Shown here: positions 4,768 through 56,797 of the stretch, one piece after another
Numbering within the stretch: the stretch's first letter is position 1
How the letters are laid out: each line of letters opens with the position of its first letter
NCBI GenBank assembly: GCA_965197525.1
Contig: OZ240211.1
Coordinates: forward strand, 544,001 to 608,000
Direction: 5' to 3'
Source of the DNA: Nitrosopumilus sp.
GTDB lineage: Archaea > Thermoproteota > Nitrososphaeria > Nitrososphaerales > Nitrosopumilaceae
Length of the DNA stretch: 64,000 bases
Made by a program: the position numbers and the translations under genes
Notes under the pieces: model-generated
What the model saw: the letters and a program-made list of their open reading frames with translations, nothing else
Databases searched by the model: none
What the model was told of the DNA's origin: nothing

Positions 4768-4811
4768 TAGTCCTCGATCTGAAAAAAAATGTTAATTATA
4801 TTAAAGTTGGG

Positions 4812-5199
4812 GGTTCTGTGAAGTTATAGAGACCTGAAACATGGATGAATAAATATCGTTAATTATATCATAATTATGTTGAATCCAACAAACACGAACA
4901 CGCAATGTCCAGGATGCGGAAAGATATTCCAAGAGGACATGCAATACAGACGTAAAATATCGTGTACCAATTGTGGATTGTTCATGAACAGCAACAACAT
5001 TGTCATGAACACATCTCACAAGCTGTCCCCTAGATTTAGGGATAGTAGAGGTGACATACATGAAGCACAGACTAACACTTTTGAGTTAGCAATGTCGGAA
5101 CCCAGTACACAGGTAATCCGAATAGTCGATATGTCAAAGTCAAGTAATAGGAGAAACACACCTTGGTAAATCAACGGGTACCTATAACTTCACAGAACC
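4812..5199 (+). mobile_element. Non-autonomous family-B derivative (388 bp) retaining the tnpB 3' end
   Basis: Perfect 18-bp TIR GGTTCTGTGAAGTTATAG at 4812-4829 and 5182-5199; interior homologous to the 3' end of tnpB at 55021-56223; no TSD. Confidence 0.88.
4876..5169 (+). pseudogene. tnpB: tnpB 3' fragment (Zn finger, degenerate RuvC-III, tail)
   Basis: TQCPGCGK..CTNCG..PRFRDSRGDI..VIRIVDMSKSS matches family-B TnpB; RuvC-III Asp lost. Confidence 0.88.
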
Positions 5200-18552: not shown

Positions 18553-19852
18553 CAGTAGTCGGAAATGTACCCATTAGGCAGGTTTTCCGACATCATACGG
18601 TTGACCCACCATCCTACATAATTCCAATGCAGCCATTGCTGTAGCATATACGACAAGTGCCAAAGTCACACGATCATAACTCGAATCTGCACGATACTGC
18701 TCCACTGCCCACGCGTTGTACATGAACAGCGAGACGTAAAACATGATTACCCTAAACGACGCATTGCGGCTTGTTGTCCTCGGGCGTACCTGCTCGACTT
18801 GCTTGTATCCTGTCTCTATCCCCCACCTTCTCCGGTACTCCTCCGGAAGCGTCTCAATCTCGTCTAGTGCCCTGGTAGGAGAAAGATTGGTGGCAAAGAC
18901 ATGATATCTTTCCGTGGTATTGACATCAGGATCGTCTATCTTTTTTGAGGGTGTGATTATCAATGTGAATGTGACAGACTGGCCTGCTGCGTTTCTGACG
19001 GTGTACTGCGAGACTGCCTTGCGTAATTTATCGTGATGCTCTTGTATCATCCTCTTTATCCCCGTGTTCTTGACTGCAGGCATCAGGAACTTGCGTCCGT
19101 GTTCTGATACAAGTTTGATTATCTCAGTCGAGTAAAACTCGCGGTCCATCAGCAGCAACCGGGCCCGTATCCTGTAATCCACGAGTTTTTGGACGAATTT
19201 ACGCACAAAGTCGGCGTCATCCACGCTGCGCGTGACCTGCATGCACTCTAAAATGGCCGGAACCTGTTCTGCTACCACATGCATTGTTGCGTAACACTCG
19301 AACTTGCTTGTACCGCCCTTTGGTTTGGATCTTGTCAGATGTGACATGTTGTCCTTGTCGTGCCTTGGTATCAGGTGTTTATCTATTGCTACTAGTACGC
19401 CCCCCTTGTACCGGCACGTATTCTTGGCAAGCCTTGCGGTGCGTGTGATCATATCCATGCAGAGCTCGTCTGCACTGTCTGATTCCAGCGAGTTTATCAT
19501 GTTGCGAAACCACTTGGGCGACGGCATCTTCTTTTTGGCGTGCTTGAGCAGCCGGATTGCCTCCTCAGAAGCTATGTTGGATTCAGACATCTTCATCAGT
19601 ATGGCTGCAAACTCGCTTACCCCGTATTGGGCATTGTTCCTCGTAGAGAATCCTATGGGTGCAGACTCTAGTATTCCTGACAAGGTATTAAGTATCCTTT
19701 CTCCAATCTTATTGTGGTGTACCTGCCCACCTTTTTGCGTTAACACTAAGGTGGGTAAGGGCACTGTAGGTAATAGATCAGTATGTTCGAAGAATGTTAA
19801 CATAATTGAGAACATCTGTTGGTTGATTTAGGGAGTACATTTCCGACTACTG
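18553..19852 (-). mobile_element. ISH3-family insertion sequence (1300 bp)
   Basis: 18-bp perfect TIR CAGTAGTCGGAAATGTAC; 5-bp TSD ACATA (18548-18552, 19853-19857); GC-rich interior. Confidence 0.92.
18574..19815 (-). CDS. ISH3/IS4-like DDE transposase
   Basis: AIDKH, LMDREF, YRRRWGIETGY, RPRTTS motifs. Confidence 0.92.
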   Translation of the reverse strand: MFSIMLTFFEHTDLLPTVPLPTLVLTQKGGQVHHNKIGERILNTLSGILESAPIGFSTRNNAQYGVSEFAAILMKMSESNIASEEAIRLLKHAKKKMPSPKWFRNMINSLESDSADELCMDMITRTARLAKNTCRYKGGVLVAIDKHLIPRHDKDNMSHLTRSKPKGGTSKFECYATMHVVAEQVPAILECMQVTRSVDDADFVRKFVQKLVDYRIRARLLLMDREFYSTEIIKLVSEHGRKFLMPAVKNTGIKRMIQEHHDKLRKAVSQYTVRNAAGQSVTFTLIITPSKKIDDPDVNTTERYHVFATNLSPTRALDEIETLPEEYRRRWGIETGYKQVEQVRPRTTSRNASFRVIMFYVSLFMYNAWAVEQYRADSSYDRVTLALVVYATAMAALELCRMVGQPYDVGKPA

Positions 19853-23435: not shown

Positions 23436-23477
23436 AAAGAAATTTCAGAGAAGGGTGGTTTAAAGGAAATGATCTAT

Positions 23478-24764
23478 GGTTCTGTGAAGTTATCAGGAGT
23501 TAACCCCTATAACTCGACTTTGACATATCGACTATTCGGATTACCAATGGTGTGCTGGGTTCCGTCATCGCAGGCTCAAAAGTGCCAGACTGTGCTTCAC
23601 ATATGTCACCTCTACTACCCCTAAACCTAGGGGGCAGTTTGCGTGATATGTTCATGGCAGCGATAATATCCCTATCCATAAACAAACCGCAATTATTACA
23701 CGACAATTTACGATGTTGTTGCATGTCCTCTTGGAGTCTCTTTCCGCATTGTGGACACTGCGTGCTCGTGTTTCTTGGGTCTACTATCTCGACTGGAGGT
23801 AGTCCGACCCATTGGGCTTTGTATTCTATTTGGCGTTGTAACTCGTAGAATTGCCACCCGTTCAATCTACGTCTGTACTTGTTACCTTGAGTGTTTCCTT
23901 TTCGGTACAATTTTCTTATTCCTTTCAGGTTTTCCATGACGATTGCAGTCTTGTTTTTGACTGCGTTGTCTACTATATCCTTTGAGATTCTGTGGATGTA
24001 CTGCTTTGCTCTGTTAGTCAGTCTTCTCTGTTTTTCCTTGTAGAACTGATTTTTCTTCCTGCGATCATTTCTGTGGAAGCCTGCCCTGGCGTGTATTGTG
24101 TTCTCCTTTATGGATAACAGTTTGTTTGTCTTGTAGACTGTCACCTCTTTCTCGTTCCCGCACGTCACATTTCTTAGGTTTCTGTCTATTCCCACTTTCT
24201 TGGTGCACTCTATCTCTTGTACTGTTTTTGAAACACAAAGACTGATGTTCAGAGCAGTCAATGAAAACGAGCGCACCGTCAAGGCAGGATCAGATAGGAT
24301 TTTTTGGGTGTGATCGTTGAGTAAAATGTTGATTGGGTTATGTTTCTTGTATGGGATTGTTAATAGTGCACCGTTGTGTTTTATGCCGTAACAGTTTGTC
24401 ATAAAGGGATTTTTGACTATTGGGTCTCTTATTCTGACACCTCGTTTGATTGATTGTTTTCTGTTTGATAATATGCCTGCAGCTCTTGATATTGCACATA
24501 TCTTGTATGTTGATAAAATGCCATAGTTACGTAATTCATGATAACATAACATGGACAACCTCTTCATATTGTGAGTGTCTTCTTTCAACCCTATCTTGAT
24601 GCAATGATTGACCATCTTTGTGAATATATCCATCATATCCATTAGATCAGAGTTCGGCGTATATTTCTGTGATATTGACTTTATCGCTTTCAACGAATAT
24701 CTTACGGTTTAGAGGTTATACATTTTAGGAATTGACATATAACTCACGATAACTTGACAGAACC
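23478..24764 (-). mobile_element. TIR-bounded tnpB-only element, family B (1287 bp)
   Basis: 25-bp TIR GGTTCTGTGAAGTTATCAGGAGTTA vs GGTTCTGTCAAGTTATCGTGAGTTA; perfect 8-bp TSD TGATCTAT at 23470-23477 and 24765-24772. Confidence 0.95.
23500..24693 (-). CDS. tnpB: TnpB-family RNA-guided endonuclease, 397 aa
   Basis: VGIDRN, IVMENL, CPQC..CNNC, DRDIIAAMNI. Confidence 0.93.
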   Translation of the reverse strand: MKAIKSISQKYTPNSDLMDMMDIFTKMVNHCIKIGLKEDTHNMKRLSMLCYHELRNYGILSTYKICAISRAAGILSNRKQSIKRGVRIRDPIVKNPFMTNCYGIKHNGALLTIPYKKHNPINILLNDHTQKILSDPALTVRSFSLTALNISLCVSKTVQEIECTKKVGIDRNLRNVTCGNEKEVTVYKTNKLLSIKENTIHARAGFHRNDRRKKNQFYKEKQRRLTNRAKQYIHRISKDIVDNAVKNKTAIVMENLKGIRKLYRKGNTQGNKYRRRLNGWQFYELQRQIEYKAQWVGLPPVEIVDPRNTSTQCPQCGKRLQEDMQQHRKLSCNNCGLFMDRDIIAAMNISRKLPPRFRGSRGDICEAQSGTFEPAMTEPSTPLVIRIVDMSKSSYRG

Positions 24765-24836
24765 TGATCTATCAAATTTTACAATTATAGAGAAAAAGAT
24801 GATCGTTTTGCAGTACAGTCTATTTGTTTTATACGA

Positions 24837-25187
24837 TTACAAAGTATTTTTATTGATAAAGAGATTCAGCATTGTTCTTCCTCTTTCCGTTAACTCGTAC
24901 ATTACATTTAGCCCTCTTGATTCCTTTCTAATAAAATTGTAATCTACACATAAATGCAGGTAATTTAAAAACGATCTCTTCATTCGAATCTTTGATTTTT
25001 GATACAAATCACTAAATGTCATAGGGCTTGTTTTAAGCTGATACAGCAATTTCAACAATGACAGTGTGCTATAATCCCTCGTCTTTGCCTTTATTGCATC
25101 AAGGATTTGCTCATCTTTTTTGATTATGAAATCGTCGAATTGCTCTGCCACATCTAGCGGGAGATATGTCAATCTTGCTTTTGGCAT
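24837..25187 (-). CDS. Winged-helix DNA-binding protein
   Basis: MTFSDLY..YLHLC..YELTERG wHTH pattern. Confidence 0.7.
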   Translation of the reverse strand: MPKARLTYLPLDVAEQFDDFIIKKDEQILDAIKAKTRDYSTLSLLKLLYQLKTSPMTFSDLYQKSKIRMKRSFLNYLHLCVDYNFIRKESRGLNVMYELTERGRTMLNLFINKNTL

Positions 25188-25330
25188 ACCGTATAGTACG
25201 GTACTATACCTTATTAATCTTTAGTTGTGTGGCAGCAGGATAGATAATTTAACGTTTCACTAAAAAAGATTAATGCGCGTATGCCAGAGTCAAAGTATAT
25301 AGTAGTTAATAGAATGAATCAGCGTAACAC

Positions 25331-39560: not shown

Positions 39561-39856
39561 TACTCACGGTGTTCAATTTGTTTAAAAGCCCGATTTTTTG
39601 TACAAAAGTTGTAATAATTCAGAAATTCTGCAAGTTCTTTGCGGAACTATTTAGCATAACAATTCCTTGTTATCTTTTTTGATCGAATTAGTATTTGAGA
39701 AAATTAGTGTTGTTTTTTAATTCTTAGGTTCTGTTAACTTACCGTCACCTGATTAATCGTGTTAAGTGTCGTCACCTGAGATCTGGTTCGAAAGAGGAGG
39801 ATAAAATATGATGGAAACGCAGATTAACTCTATATCTAGATCATACTTCATAAGAA

Positions 39857-40828
39857 ATGCAAAAAAGAGATTGGATTCTATGGACGATAGTCGCAGGTAT
39901 ATTCATATCTCTGTCATTGCCAATAATATTACCAGACGTAAACGAATTTACAACTGTAGTAATTGCACCTGTAGCAGCTGGAGTCATGATGCTTATTTTT
40001 AAGCAGTATTTTTTTGACGGCATACCATATAGTACGAAAGAAGAACACACGAAAAATATTTGTAAAGTCTACATGTTACTTACACGTGTTGGAATTAAAC
40101 AAGGTAGGCGGAACGATTCACTATGGAAACGTTTTCTAAGGTTTCCAACAGAATATAAACCAGTGGCGGGCCAGATTGTGGAAGAATTATTAGATGGTGT
40201 GCATGTTGAGCAAATATATGAAGATCAACTAGGAGATCATCCTGCTTATCTTCACTATGACTCTGCATTAGAACATCTTAAGAAGCATAGGAAATACAAG
40301 CCTATCTACAAGCATTGGGAAAACACAAAAACCATGTTGGACGAACTCAACAGCAAAACTGGTATTGAGGAAAGGCTTGAAGGCGTAATAAAGGAAAAAA
40401 TGCATCGCTACTTTCCTGCCCTGCAAAGTTTCGCACTAGGAAAAAAATCTTCAGATTTTTACGACATGGATTATATCGTGAAATTTATGATGAAATATTT
40501 CAATAATCTAGACGGCTTTTCAAGACATGCTTTGGACTCTTTGGTTTGTAATAAATCAGGCAGAAACAAATTCGTTTATTCGCAGTGGTATGTTGACAAT
40601 CCTCACATCACCGTGAACTCTGACAGTAAGATAGATTTTAAGACATACAAAAAGTTAGTGAAAGAGATGCAAGAAGATGATTCACTGAATGATTTTTACA
40701 ATGAGTATGAAAATGAACGCTGTAATATCATAAAAGAATTGACTTACTTTCAAGATGAATTAGAAGAACTTGTAAAAGATCTAAAAAGAGGGAAACTGAT
40801 AGAAGGTAAATGCGATGTGGGGTTTTGA
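39857..40828 (+). CDS. Membrane-anchored hypothetical cargo protein
   Basis: Two N-terminal TM segments; no recognised motif. Confidence 0.7.
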   Translation: MQKRDWILWTIVAGIFISLSLPIILPDVNEFTTVVIAPVAAGVMMLIFKQYFFDGIPYSTKEEHTKNICKVYMLLTRVGIKQGRRNDSLWKRFLRFPTEYKPVAGQIVEELLDGVHVEQIYEDQLGDHPAYLHYDSALEHLKKHRKYKPIYKHWENTKTMLDELNSKTGIEERLEGVIKEKMHRYFPALQSFALGKKSSDFYDMDYIVKFMMKYFNNLDGFSRHALDSLVCNKSGRNKFVYSQWYVDNPHITVNSDSKIDFKTYKKLVKEMQEDDSLNDFYNEYENERCNIIKELTYFQDELEELVKDLKRGKLIEGKCDVGF

Positions 40829-40839
40829 TCTCTATCAAC

Positions 40840-41989
40840 TTATTGAGGGATAAGCGAGGCGAAATTTTCCCTATAAAGCGAAGCGTTCTGAATGATAGTT
40901 TTCCATTTATTGTCGCCCTTGATGTCGATTCCTGCTCTAAGAGCTGGCGTATCTCCATCCAAACTCATGTGGGGTCTTATGTAGTTATGATATAATTTGA
41001 TGCCGTCTATTGCAGGAGAATCATCTTTTTTGAGTCCACGAAACACTTTCTCACGGTCTCTGAACTCCCCGTTTAGCCTTTCCTGTATGTTGTTGTTTGC
41101 TACTTGGTTTTTGAAATGTACCTCTTTGATGTGTTTGCTTGGCTTGTGTAAAAAATTCTTTGGTGCAAACTCTTTTTTGAAAGCGTCATTATACGCTGGT
41201 AGACCATCCGTTACAAAAACACTTGGAGTTTTCTTTGTTACATCTTTACCCATCTTTAACAAACTTTGTGCATCATGTTTGAACTTGCTATCAGCTACCT
41301 CTTGAGCAATCCAAAATCTTGTCTCGTTATCCATCATGGCAAACAAATATTTGCGATCTCCTTTGACTTTGAGCCATACCTCATCTGCGTGCCATTTCTC
41401 ACCTACTTGCGGTGTAATAGTGGACAAGTAATTATCCATAAGTTTGGTGTATTTTTTTACCCAGTTGTATATTGAGATATGGCTCATGTTGACACCTTGT
41501 AACTTTAGAAATTTTTGTACTCCTCTAATGGATTCGCCTGTAAAGTACAGTTGCATGGCACTTGTAATAACCTGGGGTGAGGCGTGCATCTTTTCAAATC
41601 CAAGATTGAATGAAAAATATTTTTTGCATTTCATACATTGGTATTTCTGTATAGAGTGGGTCTTGTTCTTTCTGATGCCTTTCTTTTTGATGTCTTCTGA
41701 CTTGCAGAACTGGCAACATGTAACTGTAATCTCATCAACTACTGTAATATTCTGTCTTACCTCTTCTCTAATCTTAAGACTAATTTCAACTGCGTGTATA
41801 TGTTTACAACATACTTTACAGAACTGATGATCTGGACACTGACATGTCCAACCTGCCTCTGTGGATACTATCTCATAGGTATTCTCTGATGACTGTGATT
41901 TTACAAAGTAACGGCTATCATCAACCCTTTCTATCTGGTTTTGTCTCTCTGCTATGATTTGACCTCTAGCCTGTCTTCGATTCGTACAT
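40840..41989 (-). pseudogene. SWIM Zn finger + Zn ribbon + IS6/IS240-type DDE transposase with a +1 frameshift near the start
   Basis: Frame is open upstream of 41634 (CQCPDH..CCKHIHAV; CQFC..CMKC); WHADEVW, VTDGLPAY, NNIQERLN, YHNYIRPH; ATG at 41989 is out of frame by one base (span 1150 bp). Confidence 0.85.
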
Positions 41990-42039
41990 TATAGGCATAT
42001 TAATGCCTATATAACTTATGCCCTTTAATATAGGCATAA
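41990..42039. promoter_or_regulatory. Paired palindromic operator-like sites in a divergent promoter
   Basis: TATAGGCAT-N4-ATGCCTATA (41990-42011) and TTATGCC-N10-GGCATAA (42016-42039). Confidence 0.55.
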
Positions 42040-42063
42040 ATATAACAGGTCATAATACCTAGT

Positions 42064-42237
42064 ATGAAAAACCTAGTAAAGTATTCAAATGTTGTAATTG
42101 CAAACAAGAACCAGACGGTACGGTGTACGATTCCCAAGGACATTGCAGAGATGCTAGATATAACCACTGACAACAGAATAAAATGGACTTTGGAAATTAA
42201 AACTGGTCAGATAGTATTAGAGCTTGTAAAGGAATAA
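42064..42237 (+). CDS. AbrB/SpoVT-like DNA-binding protein (57 aa, below ORF-track cutoff)
   Basis: VRCTIPKDIAEMLDITTDNRIKW matches the AbrB-like xTIPKxIxxxLxIxxGDxxxW pattern. Confidence 0.75.
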   Translation: MKNLVKYSNVVIANKNQTVRCTIPKDIAEMLDITTDNRIKWTLEIKTGQIVLELVKE

Positions 42238-42247
42238 TCATGATAAG

Positions 42248-42508
42248 TCATGGGATTGATGAGGGCTTGCAGTATTCACAATCACGGGGTGGGTTTTCAT
42301 ACCCATATTTTTCAGCTAAACACTCTGCTATCTTGTAGACCTTTTGAAGGGTTGATGCAGTATGCCAATCTGAATTTTTAGCTGTAGGTTGTTTTCTGCG
42401 TGTATAGTAAGGACACGTTCTTTTATGAATCTTGATATCTCCAACTTTTGGTTTGTTGCGATAAACTGCAAATCCATCTAAATTATGATTCAATATCACT
42501 GAATTCAA
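42248..42508 (-). CDS. Small Cys/His-containing hypothetical cargo protein
   Basis: HKRTC..CEYC. Confidence 0.55.
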   Translation of the reverse strand: MNSVILNHNLDGFAVYRNKPKVGDIKIHKRTCPYYTRRKQPTAKNSDWHTASTLQKVYKIAECLAEKYGYENPPRDCEYCKPSSIP

Positions 42509-42712
42509 TTACGGTTAATATATAATCGTAGTTATTGTAGAAAAAAGGATTTGATCGGTCAAGGGATTTGATCTGTTCAGCATCTACACTGAATTTTTAA
42601 ATAATTGGTACATTTTTTTGATTTATGCTTCCTAATCAAGAAAAAGAACCTGAAACGTAAACGTTTACACTTCCTTTTTCAATAAAATAAATGTTAAATA
42701 CAGTTTCGTTAG

Positions 42713-44140
42713 TGTATTGTCCTGAAAGTAGTTCACCCCTCACATCAGGCTCATAACCTAGGTGGGCGCGTTCCATGACCGATTTTTTCAGCGGCATGGC
42801 ATCCCATGTAAAATCTATGAAAGACACAGCCAACTTGTCCATTACTGGAAACAGTGGTGTGTGGGTCCGCAGATGGAGACGCTCTACTGTGTGGCGTTAT
42901 ATAGGAAGACGGAGAGTACGAGTAATGAAAAAACTTGATCAAGCCAAAGTGGAATGGATTATCAAAGAAAAGCGTAAAGATACTGCAAATAACAAAGAGA
43001 TTGCAGCAAAGATGAACGTCTCTGTCAGATGGGTTCAAAAGCTGCACAAGAGATACAAAGATGCAGACAAGATAGTATATCCTGTCCCAATGGGAAGACC
43101 AAAAAAGAGTGCACCCGGACGACTAGAACACTCTGTGATTCTCTCAGCAATATCAAACGAGATTCGAGGAGCTGCAACCTTGGAGCGCGTCATAAGATCA
43201 TCTGTAGGAATGTATATTGCGCACAACTTTATACACAAAGTATTGAAAGATGCAGATTATGTAGATGCCAGTACAAACAAGGGCAAGAGGCGCAAGTGGG
43301 TTAGGTGGGAACGAGATTACTCCAATTCCCTGTGGCATACTGATTTCAAACATCTTGACGATGGCAGATGGTTCCTGTGTTACCAGGATGACGCTTCACG
43401 TTTTGTGACTGGTTTTGGGGTATTTGCAGAGGCAACCACAGAAAACGCCCTAAAGGTACTTGATGAGGCCATAAAAAATCACGGCAAACCAGCATCAATC
43501 CTGACAGATCGTGGTACCCAGTTCTATGCCACAGAGTCTGAGGTCAAGAAGAAGGGAGTCTCCAAATTTGAACAAAGACTGGTGGAACTTGACATCAAAC
43601 ACATATTGGCACGTGTACGACATCCACAGACAAATGGCAAACTAGAACGCCTGCACGGAGAGATACAGCGCAAACTAGGCCACTTTGAAGGTGCTTCAGC
43701 TGGCAAGACTCGACGTGATACCTCAGAGAACTCTAGCGTGGGAGGACCGTTTTACACCGCATCTGCAAAGGATCCCGTGGAACGGTTCATGGAATGGTAC
43801 AACTACAACAGGCCGCATATGTCACTTGACTGGGACAATCTAGAGACTCCGGTACAGGCATTTAAGAGAAAGATGCCGCCTGCTGGCAAGACGGTGACAG
43901 ATAGTCAAACAGGTCAAAAGTACAGTGTAGAGTAACATTATGACATTAAAACGGATGTTTTATTCTTAGTGGACACTACATAATTTTTTGAATAGTTGTC
44001 ATGCGTGGAGTGGAAATGAATAAAATTCATGAATTGTACAGCAGAATTTAGCGCAAGAGAGTTATACATCACTCTAGAACATCATACATGCAAACATCTC
44101 CAAGTTTTGAAGAGGGGCGAACTACTTTTGGGATCCCACA
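42713..44140 (+). mobile_element. IS481-family insertion sequence nested in the cargo transposon
   Basis: 29-bp imperfect TGT-starting TIRs; 14-bp TSD TACAGTTTCGTTAG at 42699-42712 and 44141-44154. Confidence 0.9.
42925..43935 (+). CDS. IS481-family DDE transposase
   Basis: LWHTDFK, ILTDRGTQF, HPQTNGKLER, YNYNRPHMSL; N-terminal HTH. Confidence 0.92.
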   Translation: MKKLDQAKVEWIIKEKRKDTANNKEIAAKMNVSVRWVQKLHKRYKDADKIVYPVPMGRPKKSAPGRLEHSVILSAISNEIRGAATLERVIRSSVGMYIAHNFIHKVLKDADYVDASTNKGKRRKWVRWERDYSNSLWHTDFKHLDDGRWFLCYQDDASRFVTGFGVFAEATTENALKVLDEAIKNHGKPASILTDRGTQFYATESEVKKKGVSKFEQRLVELDIKHILARVRHPQTNGKLERLHGEIQRKLGHFEGASAGKTRRDTSENSSVGGPFYTASAKDPVERFMEWYNYNRPHMSLDWDNLETPVQAFKRKMPPAGKTVTDSQTGQKYSVE

Positions 44141-44168
44141 TACAGTTTCGTTAGACTAATGACAAAGT

Positions 44169-44735
44169 ATGTCAGAACCGCCAAAAAACTCAAAGGCTTG
44201 GTATCTCTTACCAGTGTTTCTATTTGCTCTAGGCGGAGTAATTATGTTTTTGGTATTACGTAAAAAGAACTCACAGATGGCGAAACAGGGCCTTATTCTA
44301 GGAGTTACCATATCAGTGGTTTGGTTTTTGGCTCCAATTCTTAGCGGAGCAGCATCACCTCTATGGTTTCTGGAAGATATAGAAGAATATGAATACGAAT
44401 CTAATAATTTTGAAAAGTCTCCAGATAAGCAGAAGCTTGAGATAGATAAGCAGAAGCTTGAGATAGATAAGCAGAAGCTTGAGGCAGAGTTAGCAAAACT
44501 TGAGGTAGTGAAGCAGATGCTTGAGGCAGAGAATTCTGATAGGATAGTGTCTAATGATCAATGTTCATTATTTTGTGATTCAAACAACTATGAACCAGTT
44601 TGGGCCAAGTCTATGGGTAAATATCAAGCTACGAGTAAATGTCAATCTATAGTCATTGAGAACTTTCAATCTAAAGACGGAAAATGGTGTATTGAATTAC
44701 TAGGCAAAATTCTAGATGATCAATATGCACCGTAA
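44169..44735 (+). CDS. Membrane protein with 21-bp coiled-coil repeats (DKQKLEI)
   Basis: AWYLLP..GG TM hairpin; repeats at about 44424-44483. Confidence 0.7.
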   Translation: MSEPPKNSKAWYLLPVFLFALGGVIMFLVLRKKNSQMAKQGLILGVTISVVWFLAPILSGAASPLWFLEDIEEYEYESNNFEKSPDKQKLEIDKQKLEIDKQKLEAELAKLEVVKQMLEAENSDRIVSNDQCSLFCDSNNYEPVWAKSMGKYQATSKCQSIVIENFQSKDGKWCIELLGKILDDQYAP

Positions 44736-44743
44736 TACGGTAT

Positions 44744-44821
44744 CTATACCTCAAGTTTTGCTAACTCTGTCTCAAGCTTCTGCTTCTCTTGCCATTCTAC
44801 CTCTTTCTTCTCTAGTTGTCT
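44744..44821 (-). pseudogene. Inverted paralog fragment abutting the right TIR
   Basis: RQLEKKEVEWQEKQKLETELAKLEV*; 38/39 nt match to 44469-44507. Confidence 0.65.
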
Positions 44822-45068
44822 AGGTGACGACAGTTAACAGCAAGAGTCAGGTGACGGTAAGTTAACAGAACCCATCTAACAATATGTTAATATGCTATAG
44901 TATATAACATATCTATATCATGAATGAAAGAACATTTCAACAACAATGGGGAGAAAGACATGATGCTGTAGTGAAAAAGTATGAAGACAAAAAGAGAGAT
45001 GGAACCATGAGAAAAATAGTGGTTGTGGACATAGAGGATTAGGCTATCACTCTAAATTTTTATTCAAG

Positions 45069-54930: not shown

Positions 54931-54948
54931 ATAAACCTTGATTGAGTA

Positions 54949-56235
54949 GGTTCTGTGAAGTTATCGGGAGTTATATGTCAATTCCTAAAATGTATAAACC
55001 TCTAAACCGTAAGATATTCGTTGAAAGCGATAAAGTCAATATCACAGAAATATACGCCAAACTCTGATCTAATGGATATGATGAGTACATTCACAAAGAT
55101 GGTCAATCATTGCATCAAGATAGGGTTGAAAGAAGACACTCACAATATGAAGAGGTTGTCCATGTTATGTTATCATGAATTACGTAATTATGACATCCTG
55201 TCTTCATACAAACTAAATGCAATATCACGAGCTGCAGGCATGTTATCAAACAGAAAACAATCAATCAAACGAGGTGTCAGAATAAGAGATCTAATAGTCA
55301 AAAATCCCTTTATGACAAACTGTTACGGCATAAAACACAACGGTGCACTACTAACAATCCCATACAAGAGACATAACCCAATCAACATTTTACTCAACGA
55401 TCACACCCAAAAAATCCTATCTGATCCCGCCTTGACGGTGCGCTCGTTTTCATTGACTGCTCTGAACATCAGTCTTTGTGTTTCAAAAACAGTGCAAGAG
55501 ATCGAGTGCACCAAGAAAGTGGGAATAGACAGAAACCTAAGAAATGTGACGTGTGGGAATGAGAAAATGGTAACATTCTACAAGACAAACAAGTTACTGT
55601 CAATCAAAGAGAACACAATACATGCAAGAGCAGGATTCCACAGAAATGATCGCAGAAAGAAAGGTCAATTCTGGAAACAAAGACAGAGACGAATGAGCAA
55701 TAGAACAAAGCAGTACATCCACAGAATCTCAAAACATATTATTGACAATGCAGTCAAAAACAAGACTGCAATCGTCATGGAAAACCTGAAAGGAATAAGA
55801 AAACTGTACCGAAAAGGAAACAGTCAAGGTAACAAGTACAGACGTAGATTGAACGGGTGGCAATTCTACGAGTTACAACGCCAAATAGAATACAAAGCCC
55901 AATGGGTCGGGCTACCTCCAGTCGAATTTGTAGATCCAAAACGCACGAGCACGCAGTGTCCGCAATGCGGAAAGAAACTCCAAGAGGACATGCAACAACA
56001 TCGTAAAATGTCGTGCAATAATTGCGGTTTGTTTATGGACAGAGATATTATCGCTGCCATGAACATATCACGCAAACTGCCTCCTAGGTTTAGGGGTAGT
56101 AGAGATGACATATATGAAGCGCAGTCTGGCACTTTTGAGCCGGCGATGACGGAACCTAGCACACCATTGGTAATCCGAATAGTCGATATGTCAAAGTCAA
56201 GTTTAGGGGTTAACTCCCGATAACTTCACAGAACC
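54949..56235 (+). mobile_element. TIR-bounded tnpB-only element, family B (1287 bp)
   Basis: Perfect 25-bp TIR GGTTCTGTGAAGTTATCGGGAGTTA; same length as the 23478 copy; no TSD. Confidence 0.95.
55021..56223 (+). CDS. tnpB: TnpB-family RNA-guided endonuclease, 400 aa
   Basis: Close paralog of 23500-24693; D/E/D residues intact. Confidence 0.93.
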   Translation: MKAIKSISQKYTPNSDLMDMMSTFTKMVNHCIKIGLKEDTHNMKRLSMLCYHELRNYDILSSYKLNAISRAAGMLSNRKQSIKRGVRIRDLIVKNPFMTNCYGIKHNGALLTIPYKRHNPINILLNDHTQKILSDPALTVRSFSLTALNISLCVSKTVQEIECTKKVGIDRNLRNVTCGNEKMVTFYKTNKLLSIKENTIHARAGFHRNDRRKKGQFWKQRQRRMSNRTKQYIHRISKHIIDNAVKNKTAIVMENLKGIRKLYRKGNSQGNKYRRRLNGWQFYELQRQIEYKAQWVGLPPVEFVDPKRTSTQCPQCGKKLQEDMQQHRKMSCNNCGLFMDRDIIAAMNISRKLPPRFRGSRDDIYEAQSGTFEPAMTEPSTPLVIRIVDMSKSSLGVNSR

Positions 56236-56236
56236 C

Positions 56237-56797
56237 ATGGAACGATACATGATCCACTTGAAGAATACAGGATTTGCACCTGAAAATGCTCGTGAGATAG
56301 TATACAAAGCTCGAGAACTAGCAGTAGATATGAATGCATCTGTAAGAATTGCCAGAGTTGCAAAAAAATTCGTAGAGCTTGATGTTGCAATAGAAAAAGA
56401 AGATCTCGATGAATTAGTTGCCAGATTTGCACCAATTGGCCCAATTGATAATGTCAGACACGTAATAGAAGAAGAGATCGACAAAGAACAAGGAATTCAA
56501 GATGGAATATTTTATTTTAACAGTGAGCGATTCTGGGAGAGTCATGAAGCGTTTGAGGGAGTATGGAAACAATGTTTTGGACGAGAGAAGGAACTGGTAC
56601 AAGGAATTATCTTGATGGCAGTGGCGTTTGCGCATGCACAAAAAAACGATGTCCCCATTGGAATAGGAATGCTTCGGAGAGTTTTAGAGAAACTAAATGA
56701 TTCTCCATCAATGTATCACCGCATTGATATAGACAGAATGAGAGATAAAGCACTGAATATGCAAAAGACAAACAGTTTGGCTATATTTGAGATTTAA
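56237..56797 (+). CDS. DUF309 family protein
   Basis: FWESHEAFEGVW..QGII..AVAFAH. Confidence 0.88.
   Translation: MERYMIHLKNTGFAPENAREIVYKARELAVDMNASVRIARVAKKFVELDVAIEKEDLDELVARFAPIGPIDNVRHVIEEEIDKEQGIQDGIFYFNSERFWESHEAFEGVWKQCFGREKELVQGIILMAVAFAHAQKNDVPIGIGMLRRVLEKLNDSPSMYHRIDIDRMRDKALNMQKTNSLAIFEI

Follow-up and report, generated by a model that had tools for sequence, protein, structure and literature searches.

Introduction

TnpB is understood to act by cutting the scarless donor joint that is left behind by Y1 or serine transposases, and this role has been thought poorly suited to DDE transposons, which make target duplications. In the TnpB–omegaRNA systems of the ISDra2/IS608 type, including the solo-tnpB elements termed 'IS1341', a small DRDxN-type RuvC/zinc-finger nuclease is paired with a guide RNA that overlaps the 3' end of its gene. 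The flank-derived guide of these systems comes after a terminal hairpin and a short single-stranded tail, and the target is the element-free allele, with the TAM on its 5' side (PMC13565253).

TnpBs associated with DDE transposons are known from published work only in outline. The main text of Altae-Tran et al. 2023 (PMC10691335) reports six DDE-associated TnpB branches with inverted terminal repeats, naming IS630, and suggests related ways of guide acquisition for them; there, inverted terminal repeats flank TnpB, no more than 250 bp separate the 3' end of tnpB from the element end, and solo TnpBs share their ends with transposase-bearing relatives. A 2026 review lists ISL2, IS630 and IS1031 (PMC13565253). 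Fanzor, found in eukaryotic TIR/TSD transposons, is an RNA-guided TnpB homologue on DDE transposons whose RNA likewise extends through the transposon end, and the duplication on its 5' side, a fixed TA or TTAA, counts towards the TAM, with the 3' duplication in the scaffold (PMC13565253). Among DDE transposons, the IS6 family is characterised by MITEs and by short TIRs that have a GG tip and contain a CTGT motif, with target duplications of 8 bp; copies lacking a duplication are expected from intramolecular events, and a single passenger-carrying member is known (PMC7986276).

Here, we describe in silico a TnpB element from a window of 64,000 nt, part of a single-contig 2.21-Mb Nitrosopumilus genome whose close relatives are Nitrosopumilus MAGs. 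The element resembles ISDra2/IS608-type systems in its nuclease, in the overlap of guide RNA and gene, in its terminal hairpin and single-stranded tail and, as predicted here, in its TAM and its element-free target. It differs from them in having true 25-bp inverted repeats and 8-bp duplications in a genome without a Y1 transposase, in that the duplication would fall within both guide and target, and in a TAM that would not be set by the transposase's own target site. It has the TIR-bounded TnpB of the DDE-associated branches, whereas the folding of the TIR into a scaffold hairpin, the placement of a TAM beside the duplication and the miniature elements reported below are not described in the main text of that study (PMC10691335). 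Unlike the fixed duplication of Fanzor elements, the duplication here is variable and lies between the TAM and the remaining target, and it must therefore be part of the guide. The element shares duplication length, GG tip, CTGT motif, duplication-less copies and miniatures with the IS6 family and its MITEs, but encodes no transposase and carries TnpB as cargo; moreover, local IS6-type enzymes are 375–480-codon open frames around the DDE domain, and IS1595-type enzymes are an alternative mobiliser. For TnpB, the literature searched made no mention of the hairpin or the flank rule, of Nitrosopumilaceae or of ends of the IS6 type. We consider it probable that the omegaRNA of this DDE-type element takes the right TIR into its scaffold and that the sequence adjoining the TIR on the outside serves as its guide, directed against the empty site.

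Results

Two 1287-bp elements in the window, copies 3 and 2 (Table 1), are bracketed by the 25-bp TIR GGTTCTGTGAAGTTATCGGGAGTTA, an arrangement with a chance expectation of 0, and tnpB is the sole gene of copy 3, whose inverted repeats are perfect. The motif GATATGTCAAAGTC(A/G)AGT occurs at exactly three sites in the window (56185–56202 and 5128–5145 on the plus strand, 23512–23529 on the minus strand), compared with 0.01 matches expected from shuffles. In copies 3 and 2, a spacer of 8 or 9 nt separates it from the right TIR, so that the conserved tnpB 3' region runs into the TIR with no flank between. The first-pass annotation had credited all three sites with this arrangement; it holds for the two full copies and fails for the third, a 388-bp miniature of a sister family in which the inner TIR differs (..GAAGTTATAGAGACC) and about 31 nt separate the motif from the right TIR. 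Likewise, the sequence ATATGTCAA does occur just inside the left TIR at 54973–54981 in copy 3, and in copy 2, as had been noted, but it is not a conserved feature because ATCTGTTAA takes its place in the copies elsewhere in the genome that make up the larger subfamily of this element, and we rejected it as a functional twin of the right-end motif. Copy 3 occupies the entire intergenic space between the genes for ribosomal protein S24e, whose start lies 18 bp from the left end on the opposite strand, and, at 56236–56240, for a DUF309 protein, whose ATG (56237) is separated from the right end by one base. Just past the left end of copy 2, a gene at about 24849–25223 is inverted relative to its neighbours and lies on the opposite strand in ~25 genomes of the same genus.

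Table 1. Positions of the TnpB elements, their predicted RNA features and a neighbouring transposase gene in the window.
Feature	Position	Strand	Basis
Copy 3, full element	54949–56235	+	
Left 25-bp TIR of copy 3, with GG tip and CTGT motif	54949–54973	+	~35 TIR matches in the genome, control pattern 0
Right 25-bp TIR of copy 3; last 6 nt AGAACC (56230–56235) predicted single-stranded	56211–56235	+	
tnpB of copy 3, 400 codons; stop codon 56221–56223 within the right TIR	55021–56223	+	
Putative full-length omegaRNA scaffold, under RNA-level constraint	55936–56235	+	Synonymous suppression; miniature content
Scaffold helix 1, 56077–56082 paired with 56094–56099	56077–56099	+	Compensatory changes in 5/6 pairs
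Scaffold helix 2, long-range, TGACATA (56106–56112) with TATGTCA (56187–56193)	56106–56193	+	Compensatory changes in 6/7 pairs
Terminal hairpin; 5' arm, scaffold end GT.AAGTT...GGG; 3' arm, inner right TIR CCC...AACTT.AC	56196–56229	+	
TAM-like TTG just 5' of the 8 nt abutting the left end of copy 3	54938–54940	+	Sequence; W-T-R at 43/46 insertions
Predicted guide of copy 3, first 20 nt of the right flank	56236–56255	+	Flank motif position
Copy 2, full element, with intact tnpB (23500–24693)	23478–24764	-	
8-bp duplication of copy 2, ATAGATCA (minus-strand reading)	24765–24772 and 23470–23477	-	
TAM-like TTG of copy 2	24773–24775		
Predicted guide of copy 2	23458–23477		
388-bp miniature of the sister family; retains the TIRs and, of tnpB, just the final ~300 nt (omegaRNA region); TTA at 4801–4803	4812–5199	+	
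IS6-type DDE transposase gene inside the 5.1-kb GGTTCTGT-ended element	40840–41634	-	Best NCBIfam hit transpos_IS6

The protein encoded by copy 3 has the RuvC-like D-E-D triad (GID, D170; MENL, E254; DRD, D340) and the C4 zinc finger (CPQC..CNNC) of an OMEGA nuclease, exceeds the cut-off of the TnpB profile NF040570 (124 bits against 100), matches PF07282 at 3e-20 and matches Cas12f/TnpB structures at 1e-8 to 1e-12. Across copies, the first D and the E of the catalytic triad are present in 25/25 each and the second D in 24/25, and the conserved residues therefore make it likely that TnpB serves as a nuclease; a nuclease-dead regulator is unlikely for the same reason.

The element family numbers 16 full copies in the genome, 12 of them with perfect 8-bp target duplications. 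Copy 3, which has the TTG without the duplication, is among the remaining four, for which partners were looked for and none found. These duplication-less copies, together with swapped duplications in a relative, are compatible with a replicative cointegrate mechanism and are also explained by recombination between copies. A blind search of the genome for GGTTCTGT..ACAGAACC pairs with identical 8-bp flanks recovered 29 GGTTCTGT-ended elements with perfect 8-bp duplications; TnpB is carried by 23, is 61–95% identical to that of copy 3 and is associated with at least six different inner TIR sequences. Relatives down to 34–50% protein identity in other genera of the same family as Nitrosopumilus have the same kind of ends and duplications. 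The copies here are all old, with the nearest differing at 10–71 nt positions.

In their 25-bp TIRs, 8-bp duplications and hairpin at the right end only, these elements depart from IS200/IS605 (including the IS1341 group), whose members lack terminal inverted repeats and duplicate no target sequence, carry subterminal hairpins at both ends and are moved by a Y1 TnpA, and no Y1 transposase (PF01797) was found in the 99%-complete genome, on which grounds an IS605-type right end was rejected. Instead, their duplication length of 8 bp and their short TIRs, GG-tipped and bearing a CTGT motif, are those of the IS6 family, with tnpB in place of an encoded IS6 (DDE_Tnp_IS240) transposase, and they show the bounding of TnpB by DDE-transposon inverted terminal repeats that defines the DDE-associated TnpB branches; the guide geometry of Fanzor, in which the duplication serves as TAM on the 5' side and as scaffold on the 3' side, does not apply. 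Elsewhere in the genome, the IS6-type DDE domain PF13610 has seven matches over the cut-off and one weaker, including the gene listed in Table 1, whose product scores 119.6 bits against NF033587 (transpos_IS6), below the cut-off of 125. The first 18 end bases of a 1970-bp element that has an 8-bp duplication and carries one of these DDE domain matches are common to two TnpB carriers, and two IS1595-type DDE genes adjoin similar ends. Enzymes of the IS6 and IS1595 types are thus candidate mobilisers in trans; the genomic regions that hold their genes are nested and ambiguous, and a cognate transposase for the window family, sought among them, was not pinned down. The IS6-type gene of the window lies in a 5.1-kb element (39727–44872) with 26-bp GGTTCTGTTAAC.. 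TIRs and no target duplication, which also holds an rve-type integrase gene (42775–43935, plus strand) and therefore looks like a nested or cargo-carrying transposon. A further transposase family is represented in the window by a 413-codon open reading frame with a DDE_Tnp_1 (IS4/IS5-like) domain (18574–19815, minus strand).

A structured RNA scaffold overlaps the 3' end of tnpB, as in other OMEGA systems. An alignment of 30 sequences from this and other genomes over 125 nt ending in a conserved ..AAGT resolved two helices with compensatory changes in 11 of 13 pairs. Across these helices, 98.7% of cells were paired versus 64% in shuffles (0/500 as high) and 38–51% when partners were slid. Synonymous differences between families fall from 0.3–0.5 to 0.05–0.13 over the last ~270 nt of tnpB, with a single rebound over the RuvC-III motif. 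No Rfam family matched, either at the gathering threshold or at E<=1. The resemblance of ..TATGTCAAAGTCAAGT to TCAA-type IS605 right ends, which had suggested where the scaffold might stop, dissolves on this evidence: the motif comprises the 3' strand of helix 2 and the 5' arm of the terminal hairpin. Since both helices covary, ATATGTCA is the 3' strand of a long-range helix and no transposon end, and ..GTCAAAGTCAAGT was wrongly taken for an IS605-like scaffold end, as it belongs to two RNA helices.

Miniature elements of 378–388 bp keep exactly the stretch in which synonymous differences are suppressed. A second copy of the 388-bp miniature, with an 8-bp duplication, is present elsewhere in the genome. 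Two shorter GGTTCTGT-ended miniatures were also seen, one of 208 bp (genome positions 1385894–1386101) that keeps ~120 nt from the last part of the omegaRNA scaffold on the minus strand, and one of 171 bp (338241–338411) beside an IS1595-type transposase gene.

The tail between ..AAGT and the element end is 26–100 nt long and unrelated in sequence between families, and it forms a hairpin in the minimum-energy fold of all 24 family representatives. Within it, TIR positions ~7–20 are paired (about 75%) with the scaffold end or with inserted sequence, and the terminal AGAACC is free. The 5' arm covaries with the TIR, reading AAGTTAT/ATAACTT in the window family; its counterparts are GTCGGGT/ACCCGAC in a different family and, in a relative, GCGAG/CTCGC. 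Right ends have a mean energy of -13.2 kcal/mol versus -6.3 for mirrored left ends and are the more stable in 23/24 representatives; in 23/24, the left end lacks the palindrome. The tnpB-sense strand folds more stably than the antisense strand in 26/34 cases (Wilcoxon p=0.002), a moderate asymmetry whose significance is overstated because the sequences are related to each other; in these folding models, the advantage of the sense strand is consistent with G-U pairs in an RNA. As the hairpin is also palindromic DNA, an action at the DNA level is conceivable.

Flanks were compared across 46 independent insertions with 8-bp duplications, oriented by tnpB (24 from this genome and 22 from relatives, representing at least eight genomes). 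At positions -11 to -9, directly 5' of the left duplication copy, 43/46 have W-T-R (TTG 19, TTA 11, ATA 8, ATG 5), with T at -10 and a purine at -9 each in 45/46. The mirrored right side has the motif in 3/46, shifted registers in 0–7, and its genome-wide frequency is 0.088. It lies beside 15 of the 16 copies of the window family, at a fixed distance of 0 bp. The 8 duplicated bases themselves show no conservation, in contrast to the 3 nt before them, and the other flank signals are a weak A/T enrichment at -20 to -15 and an A inside the duplication. A small control comprised four elements that carry a DDE gene between like TIRs and have 8-bp duplications, and W-T-R was present on 0/8 of their sides. 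In miniatures with TIRs and the omegaRNA region only, the motif is present in the omegaRNA orientation and absent in the other. All members of the sister family ..TATAGAGACC, miniatures included (window 4812–5199; genome 226216, 428042 and 803351), have TTA rather than TTG before the duplication, which, in this small sample, may reflect a lineage-specific TAM preference.

Because an empty site reads W-T-R, then 8 bp, then the right flank, a guide starting after the TIR fits a TAM-flanked target, and by the same geometry no such target exists in an allele that contains the element. In every copy, the predicted self-site at the occupied right end has ACC instead of W-T-R where the TAM would lie, and at the occupied left end 8 nt only match the guide. 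Together with the modelled folding of the TIR into the scaffold, the TAM-like motif in register leads us to infer a guide derived from the DNA just outside the right end. Exact matches of the predicted 16-nt guides fall in their own flank alone, as chance predicts. No paralogue of the reconstructed empty sites was found in the genome, and genomes of the same genus, only 70–80% identical around copy 2, are too diverged for its empty site to be read.

Discussion

We envisage the element as a non-autonomous DDE-type transposon with GG..CTGT-tipped 25-bp TIRs and an 8-bp duplication, whose sole cargo would be an intact TnpB nuclease gene and its omegaRNA. This RNA would be a tnpB-strand transcript overlapping the last ~140–300 nt of the gene and running on through the TIR, its last structure being a hairpin between the scaffold 3' end and the inner two-thirds of the right TIR, with AGAACC free. 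The guide would then consist of the right copy of the 8-bp duplication and the next ~8–12 nt, and the cognate target would be the unoccupied site, in which a W-T-R TAM (mostly TTG) precedes the 8 bp, themselves followed by the right flank. Once occupied, the site would be safe at both ends, at the left through a match limited to 8 nt and at the right through ACC at the TAM position. TnpB could thus cut element-free alleles, both those from which the element has excised precisely and those it never entered, and after the cut the element would be restored or spread by recombination with a copy that contains it. If such alleles were cut and restored, TAM-adjacent copies would therefore be those retained; under a strictly replicative mobiliser, such as a classical IS6 enzyme, there would be no excision to repair, and the benefit would lie in spread into empty alleles. 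From the anatomy, folds and flanks described above, we infer the 3' end of the RNA, cleavage and a role in homing or retention.

The first-pass annotation had offered two options for the guide, and three independent lines (the hairpin, the one-sided W-T-R and the ACC before the self-site) speak for the one in which the TIR has joined the scaffold, with the guide taken from the flank at each new site. Under the other, the scaffold would end at ..AAGTCAAGT and a fixed guide would comprise the next ~20 nt, mostly TIR, with the ribonucleoprotein acting on or regulating TIR-bearing elements. Such a guide would suit the position of the TIR directly after the conserved block, and on the bottom strand of the copy 3 left end the TIR sequence is preceded by ATA, a triplet that conforms to W-T-R, whether by accident or by design; the corresponding triplet is, however, AGA in the larger subfamily. 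The would-be guide is, moreover, sequestered in a conserved hairpin, the TIR-proximal region is wholly different between TnpB families that share 77–95% protein identity, and neither the hairpin nor the one-sided motif at 43/46 sites is explained, so that we regard a fixed guide as extremely improbable. W-T-R could instead reflect a target preference of the DDE transposase or transpososome, with the right-end palindrome a transposase or regulatory site at the DNA level. The weak A/T enrichment upstream and the A inside the duplication would be in keeping with this, a hairpin would also form in DNA, and the transposase-carrying controls number only four. Yet the motif is strictly one-sided relative to tnpB and the omegaRNA although the TIRs are symmetric, it is missing from 8/8 sides of the DDE-carrying elements, the palindrome is absent from 23/24 left ends and the sense strand is favoured, making a pure transposase preference a quite unlikely explanation.

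A near-universal motif that a DDE transposase should not select therefore implies either retention beside a TAM or a part for the nuclease in target choice. That TnpB and its RNA help to choose the insertion site, with TAM binding tethering the DDE transposase at the moment of insertion, would account for a motif at fixed distance beside 15/16 family copies and 43/46 insertions overall. Before insertion, however, no guide for the new site exists, no protein–protein link is known, miniatures would need TnpB in trans, and, as the copies are old, filtering after insertion is sufficient to explain the motif; we hold such a choice at insertion to be rather improbable. More broadly, where the DDE transposon ends up could be set by TnpB, either through its recognition of the TAM or through its cutting of alleles that are unprotected, an unlikely proposition. 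In one form, the nuclease would tether the transposase, so that integration occurs beside W-T-R; in another, a 'hop until anchored' ratchet, only TAM-adjacent copies would be restored after excision and hence accumulate. If true, the tethering form would represent a CRISPR-free precursor of RNA-guided-nuclease-assisted transposition.

If, as we favour, the scaffold includes the TIR and the new flank provides the guide, a clade of archaeal TnpBs would have solved the geometry of DDE transposition, with the duplication supplying the first 8 guide nt and the TAM lying outside it. That nearly all surviving copies are TAM-adjacent, though the transposase should not care, would be evidence from nature for an influence of the nuclease on what becomes of each copy. 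With a 1.29-kb element, a 3-nt TAM and guide-RNA-only miniatures, the system would offer a simple setting in which to compare homing and targeting.

Copies in a related Nitrosopumilus MAG (OZ245003.1) provide two further observations. Two of its elements, L002 and L004, each bear the other's 8-bp duplication (TAGAAACT, TTATGTTA), which shows that the copies have recombined since insertion; the result is a rearrangement, either inversion or translocation, of that chromosome between 1.32 and 1.45 Mb. A third version of the element, L011, measures 2399 bp and probably holds a nested insertion; its 8-bp duplication CAGAAATC is intact, and TTG is present.
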